A stretch of 31,586 nt of DNA, taken from the IMG/VR virus record IMGVR_UViG_3300017747_001100, positions 1 to 31,586 of that record; one strand, written 5' to 3'. The position numbers and the translations under genes are program-made. This document shows positions 3,265 through 25,015 of this stretch, in pieces. This DNA comes from a virus (taxonomy: Duplodnaviria; Caudoviricetes). The stretch's first letter is position 1. Each line of letters starts with the position of its first letter. The notes beneath the pieces are model-generated. The model saw only the letters and a list, made by a program, of their open reading frames with translations. It was not told the DNA's origin and did not search any database.

Positions 3265-3813
3265 ATGGACTCAAGACTAAAGAAATCTCTCACCGCCGGT
3301 GGTCGCGAAAGTCGCGCAAGCGAGGACCTCGATCGACTGCCGCCGGAGACTATGTTCGCCGCCTCACAGGACATCGACAAGATGTGGAGTGACGAGTGGA
3401 CGCAAACCGCCCTGCCGAAAGTGCCCGACATTCCCGGTTGGCACCTCTGCTGGCTTTCCACCACTAATAGCTACGACACGATTGACAAGCGAATCCGACT
3501 GGGGTACGTTCCGGTTACCGCCGATGAGTTACCTGGGTTTGAGAACTATCGCGTAAAAGCGGGCGAGCATGTGGGTCACATTTCGTGCAACGAGATGTTG
3601 CTGTTCAAGCTACCGGCTGAACTCTACCAGCGGGTCATGACGCATTTCCATTATCAAAAACCAATGGAAGCAACCAATGCAATCATGGAACGTATGGCCG
3701 AACTCCAGCAGGGCGCTGACAGCTCAGGACACAAACTCCTGAAAACGGAAGGCGAAGGCTTCGGTAATGTGGCGAAACAATCCGTTAACCGACCCCCGGT
3801 CTTCGAGGGTTAA
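3265..3813 (+). CDS. Conserved hypothetical head-module protein
   Basis: 182 aa between scaffold and capsid genes; GAGAG RBS-like sequence upstream; motifs PDIPGWHLCW, RIRLGYVPV, EMLLFKLP. Confidence 0.7.
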   Translation: MDSRLKKSLTAGGRESRASEDLDRLPPETMFAASQDIDKMWSDEWTQTALPKVPDIPGWHLCWLSTTNSYDTIDKRIRLGYVPVTADELPGFENYRVKAGEHVGHISCNEMLLFKLPAELYQRVMTHFHYQKPMEATNAIMERMAELQQGADSSGHKLLKTEGEGFGNVAKQSVNRPPVFEG

Positions 3814-4461: not shown

Positions 4462-5379
4462 ATGGCAGCCCCAATGCGCAGTACCGACTTTCGGTCGATT
4501 GTTGAGCCTATTCTCAACGAGTGTTTCGACGGAGTCTATGATCAACGTGCTGATGAATGGTCGCGGGTTTTCCGCGAGCAAGAAGGCATTCCCCGTAACT
4601 ACCATGAGGAACCCGTTCTGTACGGTTTCGGCTTGGCTCCGCTCCTCCCGGACGGTAGCCCCGTCACCTATCAGCAGGGCGGTGTGCTGTTCCTGAAGCG
4701 TTACGTCTACTCGGTGTACGGTTTGGCCTTCGCTTTGACGAAAGTTCTCGTCGAAGACGGCGACCACATCCGCATCGGTTCGGTGTACGCTCGTCACCTG
4801 GCGCAGTCCTTGGTCGAGACCAAAGAGACCCTCTGCGCCAACGTGCTGAACAATGCCTTCACGGGCGGTCAGTACGCGGGCGGTGACGGCGTGGCGTTGA
4901 ACAGCGCCTCGCACCCCATCGTGAACGGCACGTTCAGCAACCTGCTGACCAACGCTGCGGTTCTCAGCCAAACTTCGCTTGAGCAGATGCTTATCCAGAT
5001 CCGCCAAGCCGTTGACAACAACGGTAAGAAGATTCGCCTCGTGCCACGGCAGCTCGTCGTCGCCCCAGGCAACATCTTCCAAGCCGAAGTGCTGCTGAAG
5101 AGCGTCCTGCGTGCGGGCAACGCCAACAACGACATCAACCCCGTAAAGTCCATCGGTCTGCTTGACGAGGGCGCAGCGGTGTTGTCGCGTTTGACGAGCT
5201 CAACCGCATGGTGGGTGCAGACCGACGCGCCCGAGGGCATGAAGCTCATGATGCGCCGTCGTCTCGAGAAGACGATGGAAGGTGACTTTGAAACCGACAC
5301 CATGCGGTACAAAGCCACCGAGCGTTATGACGTGGGCTTCACCGATCCACGGGCCATGTACGGTACGCCTGGCGTCTAA
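4462..5379 (+). CDS. Major capsid protein (HK97 fold, Mu gpT-like)
   Basis: Strong AAGGAGG RBS, highly biased codons, and motifs GGDGVALNSASHP, PRQLVVAP, GDFETDTMRYKATERY and GFTDPRAMYG. Followed by a hairpin. Confidence 0.9.
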   Translation: MAAPMRSTDFRSIVEPILNECFDGVYDQRADEWSRVFREQEGIPRNYHEEPVLYGFGLAPLLPDGSPVTYQQGGVLFLKRYVYSVYGLAFALTKVLVEDGDHIRIGSVYARHLAQSLVETKETLCANVLNNAFTGGQYAGGDGVALNSASHPIVNGTFSNLLTNAAVLSQTSLEQMLIQIRQAVDNNGKKIRLVPRQLVVAPGNIFQAEVLLKSVLRAGNANNDINPVKSIGLLDEGAAVLSRLTSSTAWWVQTDAPEGMKLMMRRRLEKTMEGDFETDTMRYKATERYDVGFTDPRAMYGTPGV

Positions 5380-5887: not shown

Positions 5888-6790
5888 ATGGGCCAATTCA
5901 AACCAATGGTCAAAATGATGACCACTGAGCCTTCGGTAGTTTTGAAGCTCAAAAAAGGCGGTTCCGTCAAAGCCCCCAAAATGATGGACGGTGGGGTGAT
6001 GAGGGGTCTTGCGGCGACTCCCGGAGCCCGTGGCGGTATGAACCCGGTGGCTTCGCCGGCGCGGCCCTCTATGGCTATGCGTCGGAAAGCCATGATGGCT
6101 CGCCCCATGATGAAAGAAGGCGGCGAAACCAAGGCCGAGCACAAAGCCGAGATGAGTAAGATGGCGGGCACCGAGGCTAAGCTCAAAAAGCATGCCTCCC
6201 TGCCCGCGTCTAAGGCCCATAAGGGCTTGAAAACCGGCGGCGTAGTGATGGGCCAAGGCGGGTTCAAAGCTGGTGTTTTTAATGGTGCGGCGACCACCGA
6301 GAAAGGAGCCAAAGAGTATGTCAAAACCAAAGTTGACACTGCTTCGGGCGAGCATCACACTCCGAAGAAGACTGGCGACGTGGCAATGGGCAAACCCGGC
6401 GGCTACCTGAAGGGCGGAAGCGCCAAGTACGCCAAAGGCGGAGGCGTCATGGACAATGTCTCGACGTCAAAACCTGGCCCCACCGGCACCACCACTGGTG
6501 AAGTGAAGAAGGGCAACGCCGGCGGCTACAAGAAAGGCGGTGAAGCTAAGAAAGACAGCGATGTTGATCTTGGCTACTTTAACACCGTTGGACGCGATGG
6601 TTCCCCAGGTGGCGGTAAGAAAGGCGGTGCAATAAAAAAGCACTATGCTACGGGGGGTCTAGTCGATAGCGGACGCGCCGTAGCCATGCCCAAGCATTTC
6701 GTGTCGAACCCGGTCAAAAACAACCTGCAGTCCGGTACCTTCAAAAAAGGTGGCGGGGTTGAGAAAAAGGCCTACGGCGGCGCGTGCTAA
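5888..6790 (+). CDS. Lys/Gly/Met-rich low-complexity protein with repeated [YFLM]xxGG motifs
   Basis: 300 aa, basic; LKKGG, MMDGG, MKEGG, LKTGG, MGQGG, YLKGG, YAKGG, YKKGG, YATGG, FKKGG. Confidence 0.75.
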   Translation: MGQFKPMVKMMTTEPSVVLKLKKGGSVKAPKMMDGGVMRGLAATPGARGGMNPVASPARPSMAMRRKAMMARPMMKEGGETKAEHKAEMSKMAGTEAKLKKHASLPASKAHKGLKTGGVVMGQGGFKAGVFNGAATTEKGAKEYVKTKVDTASGEHHTPKKTGDVAMGKPGGYLKGGSAKYAKGGGVMDNVSTSKPGPTGTTTGEVKKGNAGGYKKGGEAKKDSDVDLGYFNTVGRDGSPGGGKKGGAIKKHYATGGLVDSGRAVAMPKHFVSNPVKNNLQSGTFKKGGGVEKKAYGGAC

Positions 6791-7966: not shown

Positions 7967-8371
7967 ATGCCCGCCAAAACTAAGGCGCAGTTTCGGCTTA
8001 TGAAAGCGGCGGAGCACAACCCTAAGTTCGCCAAAAAGGTCGGCATTCGGCCTGATACCGCCGCCGAGTATACCGAGTCTAACGTGAAGGGTAAAGCGTA
8101 TGCGAAACTTCCTGAGCGGCTTAAAGAGGGCGGCCCGAGTCTTGCGATCGGTCGTGGCGAGAAACTTCCGGCGTCTCAAGGCGCGGGTCTTACCGCCAAG
8201 GGTCGAGCGAAATACAACCGCGCCACCGGATCAAACTTAAAAGCGCCTCAGCCCGAAGGTGGCCCCCGGCGCGACTCATTTTGCGCCCGTATGGGCCCAG
8301 TGGCGCGTAAATCAGACCGCGGGTCGCGTGCCCGCGCCTCTATGAAACGCTGGAACTGCCCAGGGTGGTGA
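7967..8371 (+). CDS. Small basic phage protein, two modules (MPAKTKAQ..HNPKFAKKVGI plus DUF6321-like)
   Basis: The C-terminal half GAGLTAKGRAKYNRATGSNLKAP..RRDSFCARM..RWNC resembles DUF6321-type phage proteins (from recall); modules are joined at LKEGG. Confidence 0.65.
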   Translation: MPAKTKAQFRLMKAAEHNPKFAKKVGIRPDTAAEYTESNVKGKAYAKLPERLKEGGPSLAIGRGEKLPASQGAGLTAKGRAKYNRATGSNLKAPQPEGGPRRDSFCARMGPVARKSDRGSRARASMKRWNCPGW

Positions 8372-8374
8372 TCG

Positions 8375-9445
8375 ATGGCATACTCAGACACTTATGGTCA
8401 GGTTTACCCAGTACAGGTTCTGATAGATCACGCAGCACGACGCTGCGGCAAGTTAGCGGAAGAGCTTACTAGCGAGCAGCTTATTACCGCCCGCGAGGCT
8501 TTGGGCTTCGTCATGACAAACTTGATCAATATTGGCATTCAATATTGGGCGATTAAAAAGGAAGTCATTGGGTTAACCGCAGACAAATACATCTACTCGC
8601 TGCCCGTAGGTGCTAATGATGTCCTGAATGCGCTGTATCGGACCATGAACCGCCCAACGGGTAGTTATAGCACTTCAGCGGGTGGCACGGTAGCAAATGT
8701 TGCGGACAACGATGTCGATACGTTCTGCCAGCAAACGAGTGCTAATGGTAGCATTTCAGTCAATTTTGGCACTGACAATCCTGTTTATGCAGGTTCTATT
8801 GGTGTGCTGCCTTATGTGTCAGGTGGTGGCAGCGCCACTTGGACTTTTACGCTTGAGTATTCCACCGACGGAAGCACTTGGAACACGCTAGAAAACGTCG
8901 GAACCGTAGCGGTTACAGACAATGAATGGCTTTGGTATGACATTGACCCTGGCCAAACGGTTCAATATTACCGAATCAGAGCCTCTGGCGGCACGACGTT
9001 GGCATTAAGAGAGTGGTTTATAGGCAATAACGCTCGCGAAATCACCATGTCACGCCTAAATCGTGATGATTATACCAACCTGCCGAATAAAAACTTCACA
9101 GCCAACCAGCCGTATCAATTTTGGTTCAACAGGACAATCCCTCAACCGGAAATTTACCTCTGGCCAACGCCATCAGATCCGTTTGTGCAGATGACCGTTT
9201 GGTATTCAAAGCAAATCATGGACGTGGGTGAGCTTACAGACGAGCTACAAATCCCGCAGCGGTGGTACATGGCAACGCTAGCAATGCTAAGCCATCAGTT
9301 AGCCTTGGAACTGCCCAATGTGCCGTTAGACCGCGTGCAGTATTTGGAAAACCAGGCCGAAAAGTACCTAAATCAGGCCGAACAAGAAGAGCGCGACCGC
9401 AGTCCTATCTACTTCGCGGTAAATTTGGTTCCGTATACAAGTTGA
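8375..9445 (+). CDS. Head-tail adaptor/tail-ring-like protein with inserted discoidin (F5/8C)-like domain
   Basis: N-terminal helices, SRLNRDDYTNLPNK..QPYQFW..IYLWPTP adaptor-type motif, and a central LEYSTDGSTW..YYRIR jelly-roll pattern. Confidence 0.6.
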   Translation: MAYSDTYGQVYPVQVLIDHAARRCGKLAEELTSEQLITAREALGFVMTNLINIGIQYWAIKKEVIGLTADKYIYSLPVGANDVLNALYRTMNRPTGSYSTSAGGTVANVADNDVDTFCQQTSANGSISVNFGTDNPVYAGSIGVLPYVSGGGSATWTFTLEYSTDGSTWNTLENVGTVAVTDNEWLWYDIDPGQTVQYYRIRASGGTTLALREWFIGNNAREITMSRLNRDDYTNLPNKNFTANQPYQFWFNRTIPQPEIYLWPTPSDPFVQMTVWYSKQIMDVGELTDELQIPQRWYMATLAMLSHQLALELPNVPLDRVQYLENQAEKYLNQAEQEERDRSPIYFAVNLVPYTS

Positions 9446-9447
9446 TC

Positions 9448-10041
9448 ATGTCACTTTTATCTGGTTTTCATAAACATCACATCATCCCTCGGTATAAGGG
9501 AGGTTCAAACGCGCCTGAAAATCTTGTGTTGCTGCACCCTATAGACCATGCAATCACACATTTGGTGCTATTTAAAATATATGGAAATCCTGCTGATGGT
9601 TGGGCATACAACCGCATTCTTAATGGCTTAAAAGATGAACTAATTCCAAACCGCAAAGGTATTTCTAAGCCTTATATGAAAAAGCCCAAGTCTGATGAGA
9701 CTAAGGCAAAGATGTCTGCCGCAGCTAAGGGAAAGAAAAAATCGCCTGACGCCGTAGAGAAAATGCGCAAGGCGCTGATTGGCAGAAAAGCCACGGGTAA
9801 GTCTTTGGAAGTGTTGCATGCGCATCGGCACTTGGCTTGGAGCGCTGAGGCGCAGGCTAAAAAGTCTGAAAAAACCAAGGGTGTTTCTCGCCCATATGCG
9901 AGAAACTCTAAGCCTCCATCAGTTGAGGCATGTGCCGCTGGAGGCAAAGCTGGTAAAGGCCGCAAGCAAACTCCCGAGCAAATTGCAAAACGCGTCGCCT
10001 CTCGTCGCGCCACGCTAGCGGCTCAAGGGAGGACCGCGTAA
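9448..10041 (+). mobile_element. Free-standing HNH homing endonuclease with NUMOD3-like DNA-binding repeats
   Basis: HKHHIIPRYKGGSNAPENLVLLHPIDHAITH (HNH), followed by KSDETKAKMSAAAKGKKKS, KMRKALIGRK and GKGRKQTPEQIAKR (NUMOD3-like). Locally AT-rich. ATG at 9448 is preferred over the GTG at 9262. Confidence 0.85.
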
Positions 10042-19861: not shown

Positions 19862-22800
19862 ATGGCTTTACCGGCATTGCCAAGCGGTTGGGAAAACTAC
19901 AATCCCTCGCAAAAAATCAATTGGTTTAACGCAAACCAAGTTGATGAAGGGACGCTTCGTAATTACGCCTCTCAGGCTGACATTGATTGGATGAAGAGCC
20001 AGGGTTATCAAGGGTCTTATGAGCCGATAGAAACCGAAGCTGTAACGGGGGTTAAACCTGGCGGCCTGGCTTCAGTTGCTTCGCAACCTGTCTACACACC
20101 CGAGCCTATTTATACCCCTGAGCCTGTCTATACGCCCGAACCAGTCTATACGCCACCTGACAACAGCGCCCAGATCGCATCACTAGCAGCGGAATTAGGC
20201 ATTCCTAAGTTTTTGGTTGCCAATTTCATTAACGCAGGATACACGGTTGACGATGTTCGGGGTATGTATCCAACGCAACCGGCTACACCCGAACCCGTGG
20301 TTACTTCAACCGTTACGCCTGTAACAGTAACGTCTGCAACCGGTGCATTGCCAACTGCTACCGCAGAAACATCTGGCACAGGCGCACTGCCAATAAGCAG
20401 TTTTGATACGAGTGGCAACGCTATAACTGGCACTACGTTTACAGAAGATCGTTATAACCCAGATGACCCCGCTTCGTCGCGTTACATAGCAGACCCTAAT
20501 GCGGGTCAGTATGTGTTTGATCCTGTTACGGGGAAGCCTAAATTACTGTCTGCTGATCAGGTTTATAACAATGTAGAGATTCCAACTTTCACAGATCGAA
20601 CCGTTTATCAGGGTGGCGGTGAAGATGCCGGCACTTTTGAATCTGCCGAGCAACAACGATCAGCTTGGCAAGCAGAGCAAGACCGCCGCGCAGCATTAAC
20701 GCCAGCGCAAAGAGCTATTGAAGATGCTAGATATACAGAAAATCTCGAAGGGGGTAATGAAACTCGATACAACACCGTAAATATTGGTGGCAAAGATTAT
20801 ACTGTCGCAGGTGATGGTAGCACTTTGGTTCGCATATCAGACAATCAATCAGGCTTAGGCTCAAAGCAAACCCGTTACGATATGCTTGACCCAGTAACAG
20901 GGAAAATAACGCAAGAAATTGGCGTCGAAGGTCCTGGGTTATGGAAAAGTTTTTTGACCAATCCTGTAACTGGTTTGATTCTTGGCTTAGCATTGCCTGG
21001 GGTTGGATCAGCTATAGGAAGTGCTTTAGGAGCCACAGGTGCCGCTGCGGGTGCTTTAGGCTCAGGTGTGTTGAACTTTGGCCTTCAGGTTGCTGCAGGC
21101 GCAGATCCAATTGATGCCTTAAAAGGGGCGGTGTTAAGCGCAGGAGCCGGGTTCGCAGGCGCTCAAGTTAGCTCAATGCTCCCAGCGGAACTAGCAAGCG
21201 CTGGTAAAGGCGCCATCACGCAACTCATTACGACAGGAAAACTTGATCCCGCAGCGTTAGCAACAAGTGTGGGCACAAGCTTCGCTACAGATGCTTTGGT
21301 TGCTGAAACAGGCGTTGATAAAGCCACCGCTTCAAAGCTCGTTTCCGCAGGTCTACAAGCCTTACAGGGCAATGAACTAGCCGCGCTTACATCACTTGCA
21401 CAAGCCGGTATTCAAAGTGGTTTAGCAGGAACGAACGCAACGGCTCAGTCGCCACAAGATCGCGCTGCGTTTCTTGAGGCCAATGCTTCGCCGCTAGGGC
21501 TTTCTGCGCTCTCGCCTAACCCCAGCGAAGATGAACTCATTAGTCTTGAACAGCGAACCAACTCAGCCAACCAGCTCCTGCGCGATTACACATCCCTAAA
21601 CAGTGATCTTTTTCGTGAAGGTGCGGTCAACCAGCTCACCGCACTAGGCATCAGCGCAGCCAAGGCAAACGAGCTTATTTCAAACGCCGATTCTCAGGTT
21701 GAGCAGCGCCGAGTCGCGACGGACGTCATGTCTCGGTACTCAAAGATTGACCCTGAGTTCGGCACACCGCAGCTTGATCGCAACACGGCGATTCAGCAGA
21801 TGGTTGCCGCTGGGATGAGCACCGACCGTGCCAATGAAATTTTGAACGGAGTTGACGCGCAGAACGCCATAAAACTTGAGAACAAGTTGAGCGTCCAGTC
21901 GGCTTATCAGAACTTTGTAAAAGGCACCGGCTCAGAGGAAGCTCTGCGCAGCGCCATGACCTCGGCGGGTTACACCGACGCCGATATCAACAATCAAGTC
22001 ACGCGAGGCCGAACCGTTCTTGAAGGTCAAAAGCTAACCGCAGGTGAGCAAGCGCAGCAACGCGCTGAGCTGCTGCCCGATATCCGCGCAGAAATCGCCG
22101 GTAAAGCAAACTTCAGCGACGCGTACGCCACTGCCCGTGAAAAGTTGGGGGCGGGCGCGGTGTTCACTTGGAACGGAAAGAGCTACAGCACCGCCACGTT
22201 TCAGGAAGACCCCAAGCTGGGCCTTGTGCCCGTTGCGGGTAGCGGGCGCGGCGAGGCCGCAGGCAAGACCGCCGAGCAAGAAGCCGCACTTGAGAACACT
22301 CGTCAACAGCTCGCCGCTCAAACCAAAAAGCCAATCGAGTCCTCGGGGCTGTGGTCGAATGTTTCTAACTTCCTGTCAACTCAAATGGCCGCCAGCAGTG
22401 CCGCCGCTAATGAGTATCTGAAAAACAACCCCAACAGTCCGATTACGCAGAGCGTCAGCACCGCATACGACGCAGCAGGTGAGCTGCTAAGCAATGTGGG
22501 CGGAGGAACGGCGCTGTTGGCGGGTAATAAACCCCTGGCGGATGCGTTCGTCAAGGGCGGCAGCGAGCTTCAGAAGATGGGGCAGTCAATCGGCACCGGC
22601 CCGCAGGATACCGCTAACTTCAATCAAACGATGCAGCTGCTCGATGCGGCTAAAGGCCCGCAGGAAAAACTCGCGGTGTTGGCGGGACGGGTTCTTGATG
22701 GCACGAGCGGTCTCGCCCGGCAGACCGTCATTGAGCTTAGGCAAGAGCTGCCCGCGCTGTTTTTAGGCGGCGCGGGTGCAAAAGCCGCGCTCATAGCTAG

Positions 22801-25015
22801 CGGACTGATTGACACCGCTGACACCGCCGGTGGGGCGGCGCTCGACGCCTATGACTCAGCGGTCAAGAGCGGTAAGACGCATCAGGACGCGCTCACCGAC
22901 GCCCGCAAGGCTGGGGCGGCTGCCGGCGCGACTGAGGCGGCTATACAGTTGACGATTGGAAAACTAGGCGAGCTAGCAGTTGGAAAGCTCGACAACATAG
23001 TCGCAAAAGCTGCGGGTCGAATCGGCGGCGAAACCGTAACCGAAGGCGCTCAGGAGGGTCTCGCTTCAGCTGCGGTTGACCTCGCTCTGACGGGCACGGT
23101 TGATGCGAATAAAGCCTTAACCCAAGCGATCATAGGTGGCGCGATTGGAAAAAGCACCTCGCTAGCCACGTCAGGGGTTGGCGCTGCGGAGGACATTCAG
23201 ACCGCGATTGATCAAAACGCTGTTAGCAACGCCGTGGGCAATCTTCAAACGCTCTACGGCGATACCGCCGCTGCCTCAATGGTGAACGCGTTGGTTGGCT
23301 CTGATAACCTCACGGTGGCTGGACAGACGCTGGCTTCTGACCTTTCAAACTTGATGGGTGATGCGGCGGCGGTCACAACCGCCAATACGTTGGTTTCAAA
23401 CGCTGCGATTGGGCAGGCTGCTGATACGCTAACCGCTCAGGGTCTAAGCGTCAACAACCTATCAACCGTAGTTGGTAAAACAGACACCGGCGGTGATATC
23501 ACGTTAGGCAACGCGCTCGGCTCCGCCATTACGGGCAACGGCCCCAGTGTTGCAGCTTCGACGGTCGTGGGCACAAAAGCTGACGGATCAGCATTAACGC
23601 TCGGCGACCTCAAAGCCACTGTGACCGGGGGGACGAGTGCTCAGATCACATCCGGCCTGACGGGTGATTTAAGCGCATCAGGTTCTGCGGCAACCGCCGT
23701 AGATACAAAGGCGGGAACGGATACTTCTGCAGCCACGGACACAACAGGCGGCGTAACAGCGGCAACCGACACAAAAGGCGGGGTAACAGCAGCCGTAGAC
23801 ACAACAGGCAAAGTTACGAGTGATGTTAAAACTGACGCAACCACAGGGGTAACGTCTCAAACGACTACAGACGCAAGCACGGGAACGTCAACCATTGTTT
23901 CAACTGACCCAACAACTAACACAAACACAAGCACTACGACTAACGCTGCTACGGGTATTACGACTCAGGTCACGACTAACACAAACACCAACATCACAAC
24001 CAGCGTAACGACTAATGCTACCACCGGCTCATCAACCACTATTACAACAGACGCGTCCGCCGGAACAAACACTAAGGTCACTGAAACCACTAACGGAACA
24101 ATTACAACGCAGGTCGACACGAATAATAACACGTCCGTAACTACGGCGGTCGACACGACCACCAACACCACAACGCAAACCACGGTCAACTCAAGCACCG
24201 GGGAAGTGAAGATTACGGTTACAGACACGGGAACCGGCGACATCATTGATACCGAAATAACGACGGTTGATAAACTCACGCCTGAAGAAGTGGCGATCAT
24301 TACGGTTGACCCGGTCAAGCCTGTTGAGCCCGTTAAACAGGCCACTCAGTCAAAAGCTCCTAGCTCCGGCGGCGGAGCGCCTGCGGCGCTGCTCGGCGGA
24401 ATGTCGCTCGCGGGCGGTGCGGTTGACTGGCTAGGGCCGCAGTTTTTGAAATCAAAAGAACGCGGAGGCTACCTTGACCCGCTGGCTGAGTTTCAGGCTC
24501 TTCAACAGGATGCTGAGCGTCAAGAGCTACTTAAACAAATACAACCCGAACTAGCAAACGTTTTAACGGAGCGCGGAGCGATGCCATATTACGCCTACGG
24601 CCAAGAACCTTCTATTGATGAAGCGTTGGGCTTGCCCTCAGAAGATTCCTCAGGGTATAATGATGAATCAGAATACGAACCCGTATTCAGATCGGGCGGA
24701 AAAGTTTCTCCGCTCAACCTGCAAATGATGTACGCCAAAGGTGGGCACACGCGTGAAGACTTCCGAGACGGTAAGCATGTGGCTGGCCCCGGTGATGGGC
24801 AGTCGGATGATATTCCGGCGTGGCTCGCGGACGGTGAGTTTGTTTTTCCGGCGGATGTTGTCAGCGCCCTGGGTAACGGGTCAACCAAAGCTGGCACCGA
24901 AAAGCTCTACGAGATGATGCATAGTATCCGCGACCGGGCTCGCTCGAAAGGCTCGAAAGACCTTCCTCCGCCGGCGCACAAGAGCCCGCTCGACTACCTG
25001 AAGAAAGGTAAATAA
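19862..25015 (+). CDS. Large mosaic internal virion/ejection protein (1717 aa)
   Basis: Long uninterrupted ORF after the nozzle. Contains Pro repeats, Gly/Ala hydrophobic segments, a Thr-rich region and a C-terminal GPGDGQSDDIPAWLADGEFVFPADVV domain. Confidence 0.7.
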   Translation: MALPALPSGWENYNPSQKINWFNANQVDEGTLRNYASQADIDWMKSQGYQGSYEPIETEAVTGVKPGGLASVASQPVYTPEPIYTPEPVYTPEPVYTPPDNSAQIASLAAELGIPKFLVANFINAGYTVDDVRGMYPTQPATPEPVVTSTVTPVTVTSATGALPTATAETSGTGALPISSFDTSGNAITGTTFTEDRYNPDDPASSRYIADPNAGQYVFDPVTGKPKLLSADQVYNNVEIPTFTDRTVYQGGGEDAGTFESAEQQRSAWQAEQDRRAALTPAQRAIEDARYTENLEGGNETRYNTVNIGGKDYTVAGDGSTLVRISDNQSGLGSKQTRYDMLDPVTGKITQEIGVEGPGLWKSFLTNPVTGLILGLALPGVGSAIGSALGATGAAAGALGSGVLNFGLQVAAGADPIDALKGAVLSAGAGFAGAQVSSMLPAELASAGKGAITQLITTGKLDPAALATSVGTSFATDALVAETGVDKATASKLVSAGLQALQGNELAALTSLAQAGIQSGLAGTNATAQSPQDRAAFLEANASPLGLSALSPNPSEDELISLEQRTNSANQLLRDYTSLNSDLFREGAVNQLTALGISAAKANELISNADSQVEQRRVATDVMSRYSKIDPEFGTPQLDRNTAIQQMVAAGMSTDRANEILNGVDAQNAIKLENKLSVQSAYQNFVKGTGSEEALRSAMTSAGYTDADINNQVTRGRTVLEGQKLTAGEQAQQRAELLPDIRAEIAGKANFSDAYATAREKLGAGAVFTWNGKSYSTATFQEDPKLGLVPVAGSGRGEAAGKTAEQEAALENTRQQLAAQTKKPIESSGLWSNVSNFLSTQMAASSAAANEYLKNNPNSPITQSVSTAYDAAGELLSNVGGGTALLAGNKPLADAFVKGGSELQKMGQSIGTGPQDTANFNQTMQLLDAAKGPQEKLAVLAGRVLDGTSGLARQTVIELRQELPALFLGGAGAKAALIASGLIDTADTAGGAALDAYDSAVKSGKTHQDALTDARKAGAAAGATEAAIQLTIGKLGELAVGKLDNIVAKAAGRIGGETVTEGAQEGLASAAVDLALTGTVDANKALTQAIIGGAIGKSTSLATSGVGAAEDIQTAIDQNAVSNAVGNLQTLYGDTAAASMVNALVGSDNLTVAGQTLASDLSNLMGDAAAVTTANTLVSNAAIGQAADTLTAQGLSVNNLSTVVGKTDTGGDITLGNALGSAITGNGPSVAASTVVGTKADGSALTLGDLKATVTGGTSAQITSGLTGDLSASGSAATAVDTKAGTDTSAATDTTGGVTAATDTKGGVTAAVDTTGKVTSDVKTDATTGVTSQTTTDASTGTSTIVSTDPTTNTNTSTTTNAATGITTQVTTNTNTNITTSVTTNATTGSSTTITTDASAGTNTKVTETTNGTITTQVDTNNNTSVTTAVDTTTNTTTQTTVNSSTGEVKITVTDTGTGDIIDTEITTVDKLTPEEVAIITVDPVKPVEPVKQATQSKAPSSGGGAPAALLGGMSLAGGAVDWLGPQFLKSKERGGYLDPLAEFQALQQDAERQELLKQIQPELANVLTERGAMPYYAYGQEPSIDEALGLPSEDSSGYNDESEYEPVFRSGGKVSPLNLQMMYAKGGHTREDFRDGKHVAGPGDGQSDDIPAWLADGEFVFPADVVSALGNGSTKAGTEKLYEMMHSIRDRARSKGSKDLPPPAHKSPLDYLKKGK
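20087..20155 (+). repeat. 18-nt tandem coding repeat, about 4 copies (P[VI]YTPE)
   Basis: cctgtctacacacccgag / cctatttatacccctgag / cctgtctatacgcccgaa / ccagtctatacgcca. Confidence 0.85.
23729..23818 (+). repeat. 30-nt tandem coding repeat, 3 copies (AA[TV]DT[TK]G[GK]VT)
   Basis: gcagccacggacacaacaggcggcgtaaca / gcggcaaccgacacaaaaggcggggtaaca / gcagccgtagacacaacaggcaaagttacg. Confidence 0.8.

Follow-up and report, generated by a model that had tools for sequence, protein, structure and literature searches.

Gene content and lineage of the window

The window, by which we mean the whole stretch of DNA analyzed, is a 31.6-kb virus record that is ~56% complete. Its genes encode portal, GroES-like, scaffold-like, capsid, adaptor, nozzle, fibre, lysis and ejection-type proteins, identified with PHROGs and Pfam, with some labels taken from gene order. 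The features considered below are listed in Table 1. Matches to the capsid protein were found in 22 of 50,697 phage records, the closest being an uncultured spring phage (88%), the Caulobacter phages RW and RLK (75%), and the CRP-901/HTVC023P group (~41%), and on the basis of these matches the window is read as a short-tailed phage of the RW/RLK/CRP-901/HTVC023P lineage. IMG/VR holds ~2500 matching stretches of this lineage.

The window capsid protein has matches to protease-capsid fusion families, in their capsid part. No recognizable prohead protease was found by PHROGs or Pfam among the 38 proteins of the window, which represents ~56% of the genome, in agreement with the first-pass annotation made from the sequence. 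The 182-aa protein encoded between the scaffold and capsid genes has no family match. A similar gene occupies this slot in all isolates read, and the protein's conserved Cys-Asn-Glu and His residues are found in close relatives, with the Cys-Asn-Glu limited to them.

Several minor features of gene content were also observed. A GroES-like co-chaperonin (1838-2281, +) that is conserved across the lineage lies within the head module, and an HNH/NUMOD3 homing endonuclease (9445-10041, +) is inserted between the adaptor gene and a conserved gene for a Cys-rich 113-aa protein. The listed start of the endonuclease ORF is 9262, but an in-frame ATG at 9445 abuts the upstream stop. The ejection-slot proteins of MW202545 (L164 11375-14536) are unusually Cys-rich, one of them carrying a long Cys-Ser/Cys-Cys run followed by a C-terminal motif-like ASGG, and the same genome has a ketoacyl-ACP synthase-like gene and an ACP-sized gene between its tail and ejection genes (L164 14980-16358).

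Table 1. Coordinates of the genes, motifs and module discussed in the text (window positions)
Feature	Position	Strand	Remarks
182-aa gene	3265-3813	+	conserved, between scaffold and capsid genes
LTAGG, possible N-terminal motif of the 182-aa gene	3289-3303	+	in 53/69 homologues; membership uncertain
300-aa basic low-complexity protein, 10-12 motif-delimited modules	5888-6790	+	second gene after the major capsid gene
Motif LKKGG (residue 21)	5948-5962	+	invariant in 23 aligned homologues
Motif MMDGG (residue 32)	5981-5995	+
Motif MKEGG (residue 75)	6110-6124	+
Motifs LKTGG (residue 114) and MGQGG (residue 121)	6227-6262	+
Motifs YLKGG (residue 173) and YAKGG (residue 181)	6404-6442	+
Motif YKKGG (residue 214)	6527-6541	+
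Degenerate GKKGG (residue 243) and motif YATGG (residue 253)	6614-6658	+
Motif FKKGG (residue 285) and degenerate KAYGG (residue 294)	6740-6781	+	before the C-terminal Cys
134-aa protein: basic module, LKEGG (8120-8134), DUF6321	7967-8371	+
1717-aa hypervariable protein	19862-25015	+	probable first ejection-gene slot, from gene order and a weak PHROG match of the next gene
Motifs FRSGG (24686-24700) and YAKGG (24731-24745)	24686-24745	+	just before the C-terminal module
Conserved module, candidate reader or peptidase	24761-25012	+	degenerate motif-like first strand; homologous to tape-measure C-terminal modules
Invariant Ser-Asp (24803-24808) and invariant Glu (24836-24838)	within 24761-25012	+

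A recurrent motif at module junctions

The 300-aa protein is rich in Gly (19%) and Lys (15%), with a pI of 10.1. It has no Pfam or PHROG family, and a Pfam scan was empty at E up to 10, while 4886 homologues were found among 7998 candidates scored. The first-pass annotation had described ten [YFLM]xxGG motifs and the degenerate copies GKKGG and KAYGG in this protein, and all of them lie at the residues it had assigned. It had further suggested testing whether the motif exceeds the number expected from composition, and whether it is conserved while spacers and copy number vary; both are the case. Shuffled versions of the protein contain a mean of 1.44 motifs compared to the 10 observed, and at least 9 were reached in 0 of 200,000 shuffles, although the pattern was chosen after the sequence had been viewed, so that this p-value is flattering. 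An independent check is provided by the family: each of its 72 ORFs, that of the window among them, has 6-14 copies. When 23 of the 120 listed homologues are aligned, most indels prove to be whole motif-to-motif blocks, consisting of a motif and the spacer that follows it, and family lengths range from 237 to 483 aa.

Among 69 distinct family members, Tyr, Phe, Leu or Met occupies position -3 in 764 of 1154 GG runs, compared to a background of 0.135, and 401 of the 851 Tyr and Phe residues in the family anchor a motif. A consensus of [Y/F/M]-[A/K]-x-G-G-x-V emerges from 480 and 114 distinct sites, with Val at +2 after the GG in 41-53%, indicating that conservation continues past the di-glycine. 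Doubled motifs lie 8-9 aa apart, the second anchor often being Met, and several motifs are found 2-10 residues from a C-terminus, where cutting would gain little. Separately, the 300-aa protein ends in Cys (window 6782-6787), as do 60 of 69 distinct homologues.

The motif also occurs in two other proteins of the window, as had been noted at the outset. In the 134-aa protein, it lies between the two modules and is kept in 52/63 homologous ORFs, and relatives fuse, split or add modules at this point. The 1717-aa protein has two copies, and a motif is present in 81/81 homologous ORFs (the window is included in both counts). Taken alone, each of these two proteins is weakly enriched for the motif under the strict pattern (p ~0.03 each). 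The first-pass annotation had additionally noted two SKGG in the 1474/1480 peptide; they are present, but they lack the anchor and the motif is found in 2/28 homologues, and the peptide was rejected as a member. The capsid protein carries YQQGG (4669-4683, +), with a motif match in 79/79 homologues; this copy is presumably not cut and is probably structural.

In a region that the window lacks, directly upstream of the portal gene, relatives encode giant mosaic proteins. Pfam matches were obtained for 13 of 20 giant proteins scanned and are mostly to polyvalent-protein domains, including LPD23, ART-PolyVal, GNAT, ParB and PcfJ. In 41 large polyvalent proteins we counted 117 motifs, compared to 16.2 in shuffled sequences (maximum 27 in 300 shuffles), with at least one motif in 35 of the 41; these proteins are mutually related and many are ended by the edge of the locus, so that the counts are not independent. 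The motifs tend to fall where homology between these proteins breaks: of 89 internal motifs, 65 have a homology breakpoint within 20 aa, compared to 30.9 +/- 4.4 for random positions, and conversely 85 of 423 breakpoint bins are near a motif, compared to 42.4 +/- 6.6 when shifted. Single polypeptides contain up to nine internal copies between enzyme domains, and in one polyvalent protein five long stretches, one of them an ART domain, are each fenced by motifs. Before the adaptor gene, too, the motif is where small basic modules are joined or separated, and small basic ORFs that are unrelated end in the motif, a basic tail and Trp, an ending found in 18 of the 170 short ORFs and in 12 of the 58 loci. 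At one locus (L067 6898-8970), six to seven small unrelated basic ORFs are found, most with this ending, in what looks like a cassette of tagged peptides.

The Ser-Asp/Glu module

The 24780-25012 domain, which had been suggested for examination, turned out to be the best lead. The last ~85 residues of the 1717-aa protein (24761-25012) form a module with ~60 conserved residues, for which a Pfam scan was empty at E up to 10. It has 13,581 cluster representatives and matches 119 phage records, often in tape measure proteins, and its Ser, Asp and Glu are invariant in 50 aligned sequences. Homology extends to the tape measure proteins of JBD30 (E=2e-23) and Douge (E=1.5e-15). The match to lambda gpH is weaker (E=3e-4 by pairwise profile comparison, with 0/300 shuffles scoring as high), and the lambda module has Lys-Tyr-Glu in place of Ser-Asp and keeps only the Glu and an acid. 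Module relatives at 77% identity were also noted in contigs binned as Limnohabitans and Burkholderiaceae (L171, L172), possibly a hint to the host or possibly mis-binned phage.

The motif flanks this module. It brackets the module in tape measure proteins on the N side in 49/49 and on the C side in 49/49 distinct sequences, although the C-side count was made with a loose pattern and 5 of the 49 are probably chance, and the loci were picked by patterns that include the motif, which biases both counts. It also flanks the module in H66 gp59 and AP1, and in lambda gpH at 733 and 778. In HTVC104P, the module ends a motif-rich protein encoded between the portal and presumed scaffold genes, a position where prohead protease genes are often found, and the family of this protein contains 173 motifs in 52 homologues compared to 17.8 expected. 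The accessible part of the JBD30 paper states that no peptidase motif was seen in the module region and proposes a cut at 1066, after the module (PMC11445458), and no description of the motif, of its register or of the module as a peptidase was found in the open-access literature searched.

We also compared the occurrence of module and motif across nine capsid-related genomes (the window and eight of the 22 records, three read in part). Both are present together in the window, RLK, HTVC023P, MW202545 and MinM2, and neither the module nor motif enrichment is found in CRP-901, MW202785, QDWS535 and MW202796; in this small sample, module and motif travel together. Whole-proteome motif enrichment was not significant in three of eight module-bearing genomes (RLK, MinM2 and H66) and was borderline in HTVC104P, and the whole proteome of crAss001 showed none, indicating that counts of this kind are too blunt to classify genomes; the ORF calling behind these counts also overlooked the MinM2 module.

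Natural tandem duplicates of the module provide further evidence on its organization. In single-copy modules the Glu is present in 58/58 distinct sequences. In the duplicates, it is found in 0/63 first copies (Asp in 56, Ser in 5, Thr in 2) and in 63/63 second copies, and the Ser-Asp is kept in the first copy only. These counts come from 93 of 95 loci that could be parsed and are not independent, the 63 sequences deriving from about two lineages of closely related loci, and 56 of the 63 first-copy changes are the mild Glu-to-Asp. The division of the conserved residues between the two copies suggests a site shared across a dimer, and a shared site of this sort would suit a binding site as well as an enzyme. 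Structure prediction gave a pLDDT of 60 and a pTM of 0.38 for the window module, with a best Z of 3.0 in a fold search that is uninformative at that confidence, and a pLDDT of 54 and a pTM of 0.17 for a natural tandem duplicate. A predicted complex of the module dimer with a motif peptide scored 0.11, which speaks neither for nor against binding.

The predicted cut and its alternatives

The only mapped cut at such a motif is that of T5 pb2, which was determined by mass spectrometry to be cut after R1127 (PMC10038345). The sequence at this point reads R|A-E-G-G, and the 1219-aa protein has only 2 sites of this type; the cut lies three residues ahead of the first Gly and leaves the published 92 residues. 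The AEGG site is kept in 28/28 T5-like loci and in 2/2 Vibrio relatives. As in the window, a small module follows the x|A-x-G-G site close to the C-terminus of a protein that is ejected, and its core reads Gly-Glu...Glu-Val. Unlike the window proteins, pb2 has one site, with Arg before the cut and an aromatic residue at P4, a position that is aromatic in 0/100 polyvalent-protein motifs, and the T5 enzyme may read this upstream side instead of the motif. A shallow profile comparison gave no homology signal between the T5 and window modules, and a protein search from the T5 module returned only near-identical T5 proteins among its matches. The accessible part of the pb2 paper names neither a motif nor an enzyme (PMC10038345).

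A second point of comparison is crAss001 gp45, or C1 (Pfam PF25725), a virion cargo protein in which x-A-x-G-G sites surround basic modules and a compact domain. Residues 214-245 were resolved by cryo-EM in the tail and residues 425-552 on the portal (PMC10172136). The protein contains eight x-A-x-G-G sites and each resolved piece lies between sites, the head piece starting at A425-F-G-G, a start that was noted before T5 was examined, though it may merely be where order begins in the model. Unlike the reading proposed here, the authors describe gp45 as one chain threaded through the portal, with no mention of cleavage in the text or the review file (PMC10172136). Shallow profiles gave no signal between the crAss and window modules, and an Atlas search linked the module to gp45 at 0.83, a weak lead that is below the Atlas reliability mark. 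The T5, crAss and window modules share only the motif and, as judged by eye, a Gly-Glu/Glu-Val-Val core. Given the lack of detectable homology of their modules, T5 and crAss support the register of the motif by resemblance only.

In lambda gpH, which is processed to gpH* and gpHC, a homologous module lies between two motifs. A cut at F733 would leave ~80 and 12.7 kDa, roughly fitting the published fragments of ~78 and ~14 kDa, for which both the site and the catalyst were stated to be unknown in 2025 (PMC12617516). The predicted F733|A734 bond is ~23 residues beyond the published end of gpH*, which the authors estimate at ~1-710 (PMC12617516). Lambda differs in having Lys-Tyr-Glu for Ser-Asp, as described above, and in that the processing belongs to tail rather than head assembly. 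The accessible parts of four further papers contain no mapped cleavage site at the motif (PMC2248197, PMC11447400, PMC11661146, PMC10713586), and no virion proteomics of the window's phage group was found in the literature.

Taken together, these data indicate that the motif is conserved, is located at module junctions, and flanks the module in both short- and long-tailed phages, and we consider it probable that motif-bearing proteins are cut at all. As to how, our preferred reading, which we put forward tentatively and with somewhat less than even confidence, is that the motif is a maturation cut site before A/K-x-G-G that is read by the Ser-Asp/Glu module acting as a dimer. The predicted bond lies between the hydrophobic residue and the A/K of [F/Y/M/L]-[A/K]-x-G-G-x-V. 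Motif-bearing proteins would be packed into the procapsid, where the module would first cut itself free. It would next divide the 300-aa protein into roughly twelve short peptides, most of them basic; cuts at the ten sites of that protein would give peptides of 6-67 aa with a net charge of 0 to +6. These basic peptides might neutralize the charge of the DNA, or fill or scaffold the head; the first-pass annotation had suggested that they may condense DNA or act on the host. From the giant polyvalent proteins the module would release individual effector domains of a size that fits through the portal. Acting likewise on tape measure proteins, it would free a C-terminal plug, which predicts the lambda cleavage at F733|A734. 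The packaging of these proteins could be achieved with one tag per protein; the presence of a motif at each junction fits cutting. With ~60 conserved residues, the module would make an exceptionally small peptidase.

An extension of this reading, which we regard as rather unlikely, is that an undescribed, tiny, dimeric acid peptidase and the x|A-x-G-G site constitute one ancient maturation system across tailed phages, freeing tape-measure plugs in lambda, T5 and others, cutting crAss C1 into head and tail pieces, and, in the abundant aquatic podophage lineage of the window, acting as a plug-and-play code through which any tagged effector domain or peptide can be packed within a polyprotein and set free inside the virion. 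If the module is an enzyme, it would represent a new and unusually small peptidase family. For the lambda gpH cut site and catalyst, a question open since 1974, the preferred reading names a bond and a residue. The crAss001 structure would receive a simpler reading, and polyvalent proteins without a zincin would acquire a processing rule. A motif that served only as a tag would still amount to a lineage-wide cargo code.

There are known precedents for motif-directed maturation of head cargo. The prohead proteases T4 gp21 and phiKZ gp175 mature head cargo by cutting after Glu and belong to recognizable families, and in maturation by such enzymes (T4 gp21, phiKZ gp175, SPN3US gp245), as in the system proposed here, one short motif directs one enzyme to many internal head proteins. 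Unlike in those phages, no such family was detected here, and most of the conserved residues follow the predicted cut. The sites of the adenovirus protease are likewise a short hydrophobic/Gly motif on basic core proteins, but no adenain-like gene was seen here and the predicted register is different. Encapsulin targeting peptides, which are short tags on capsid cargo, are terminal, whereas the motif here is also found at internal junctions. A further comparison is with the polyvalent proteins (Iyer et al. 2017): relatives of the window encode LPD23/ART-PolyVal/GNAT/ParB polyproteins beside the portal gene, and processing has been proposed for this class (PMC5512222). In the accessible part of that work, however, zincin MPTases are proposed as the processors and no cut motif is defined (PMC5512222), and most of the proteins here have no zincin.

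The motif could instead be an uncut docking or packaging tag, similar to encapsulin peptides, that binds the module, the portal or the capsid wall, with the 300-aa protein serving as a multivalent organizer and the doubled junction motifs being relics of fused tagged genes. We judge this somewhat unlikely. Small basic ORFs that end in the motif, a basic tail and Trp, motifs at extreme C-termini, and doubled motifs with Met as the second anchor are all consistent with a tag, as is the gp45 piece bound to the portal wing (PMC10172136), and the invariant acidic residues of the module could form the binding site. Such a tag does not account, however, for the exact coincidence of the mapped T5 cut with the motif or for the up to nine internal copies that separate enzyme domains, and tape measure proteins bracket the module with the motif despite not being head cargo. 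It is extremely unlikely that the motif simply reflects a composition rich in Gly and Lys and the expansion of local repeats and has no function in common: the 300-aa protein is of low complexity and contains a 3x sub-repeat, and whole-proteome counts are unremarkable in several relatives, but the shuffle tests, the proportion of family Tyr and Phe that anchor a motif, and the presence of the same motif at junctions of non-homologous proteins all argue against it.

If proteins are cut at the motif, the register and the enzyme are separate questions. The first-pass annotation had proposed a shared signal, either a multivalent tag or a polyprotein cut site, the latter by analogy with adenovirus, ubiquitin-type and C39 proteases, which cut after the di-glycine. 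The general idea stands, but cutting after Gly-Gly by a cysteine protease of the adenain, ubiquitin or C39 type is very unlikely, in spite of the surface likeness to the adenovirus consensus and a basic, core-like substrate. Conservation runs on past the GG to the Val at +2, the T5 cut precedes AEGG, the resolved crAss piece contains F426-G-G, and no protease of this kind was found, either among the window proteins or in the annotation of MW202545, a complete relative. If T5, crAss and lambda belong to one system, their register places the di-glycine analogy in the wrong register.

It is also conceivable, though unlikely, that the register is as predicted and that a different enzyme makes the cut, either a host protease, the 182-aa protein or a polyvalent zincin MPTase, with the module being a substrate or an anchor only. 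The absence of a match between the T5 or crAss modules and that of the window is in keeping with this, zincins have been proposed as processors of polyvalent proteins (PMC5512222), and the title of a 1973 paper in the reference list of the pb2 study points to host involvement in T5 tail-protein cleavage (PMC10038345). For each candidate there is nevertheless opposing evidence. A single host enzyme would be hard to reconcile with the occurrence of the motif in phages of Proteobacteria, Bacteroidetes and Actinobacteria, and at the 182-aa slot the Cys is absent in RLK, HTVC023P and MinM2 and the gene is present in CRP-901, which lacks the motif. HExxH occurs in just 7 of the 41 polyvalent proteins (many of the 41 being ended by the edge of the locus) and is zincin-like in 4, and zincins therefore cannot be the general processor of motif-bearing polyvalent proteins.

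A motif-like xxxGG was separately observed 8-9 residues after the zincin HExxH of polyvalent proteins at several loci (L378 6242-7141 (-), L017, L033, L036 and L072), one of these cases being in a genome without the module. In MW202785, a single motif follows a zincin signature.
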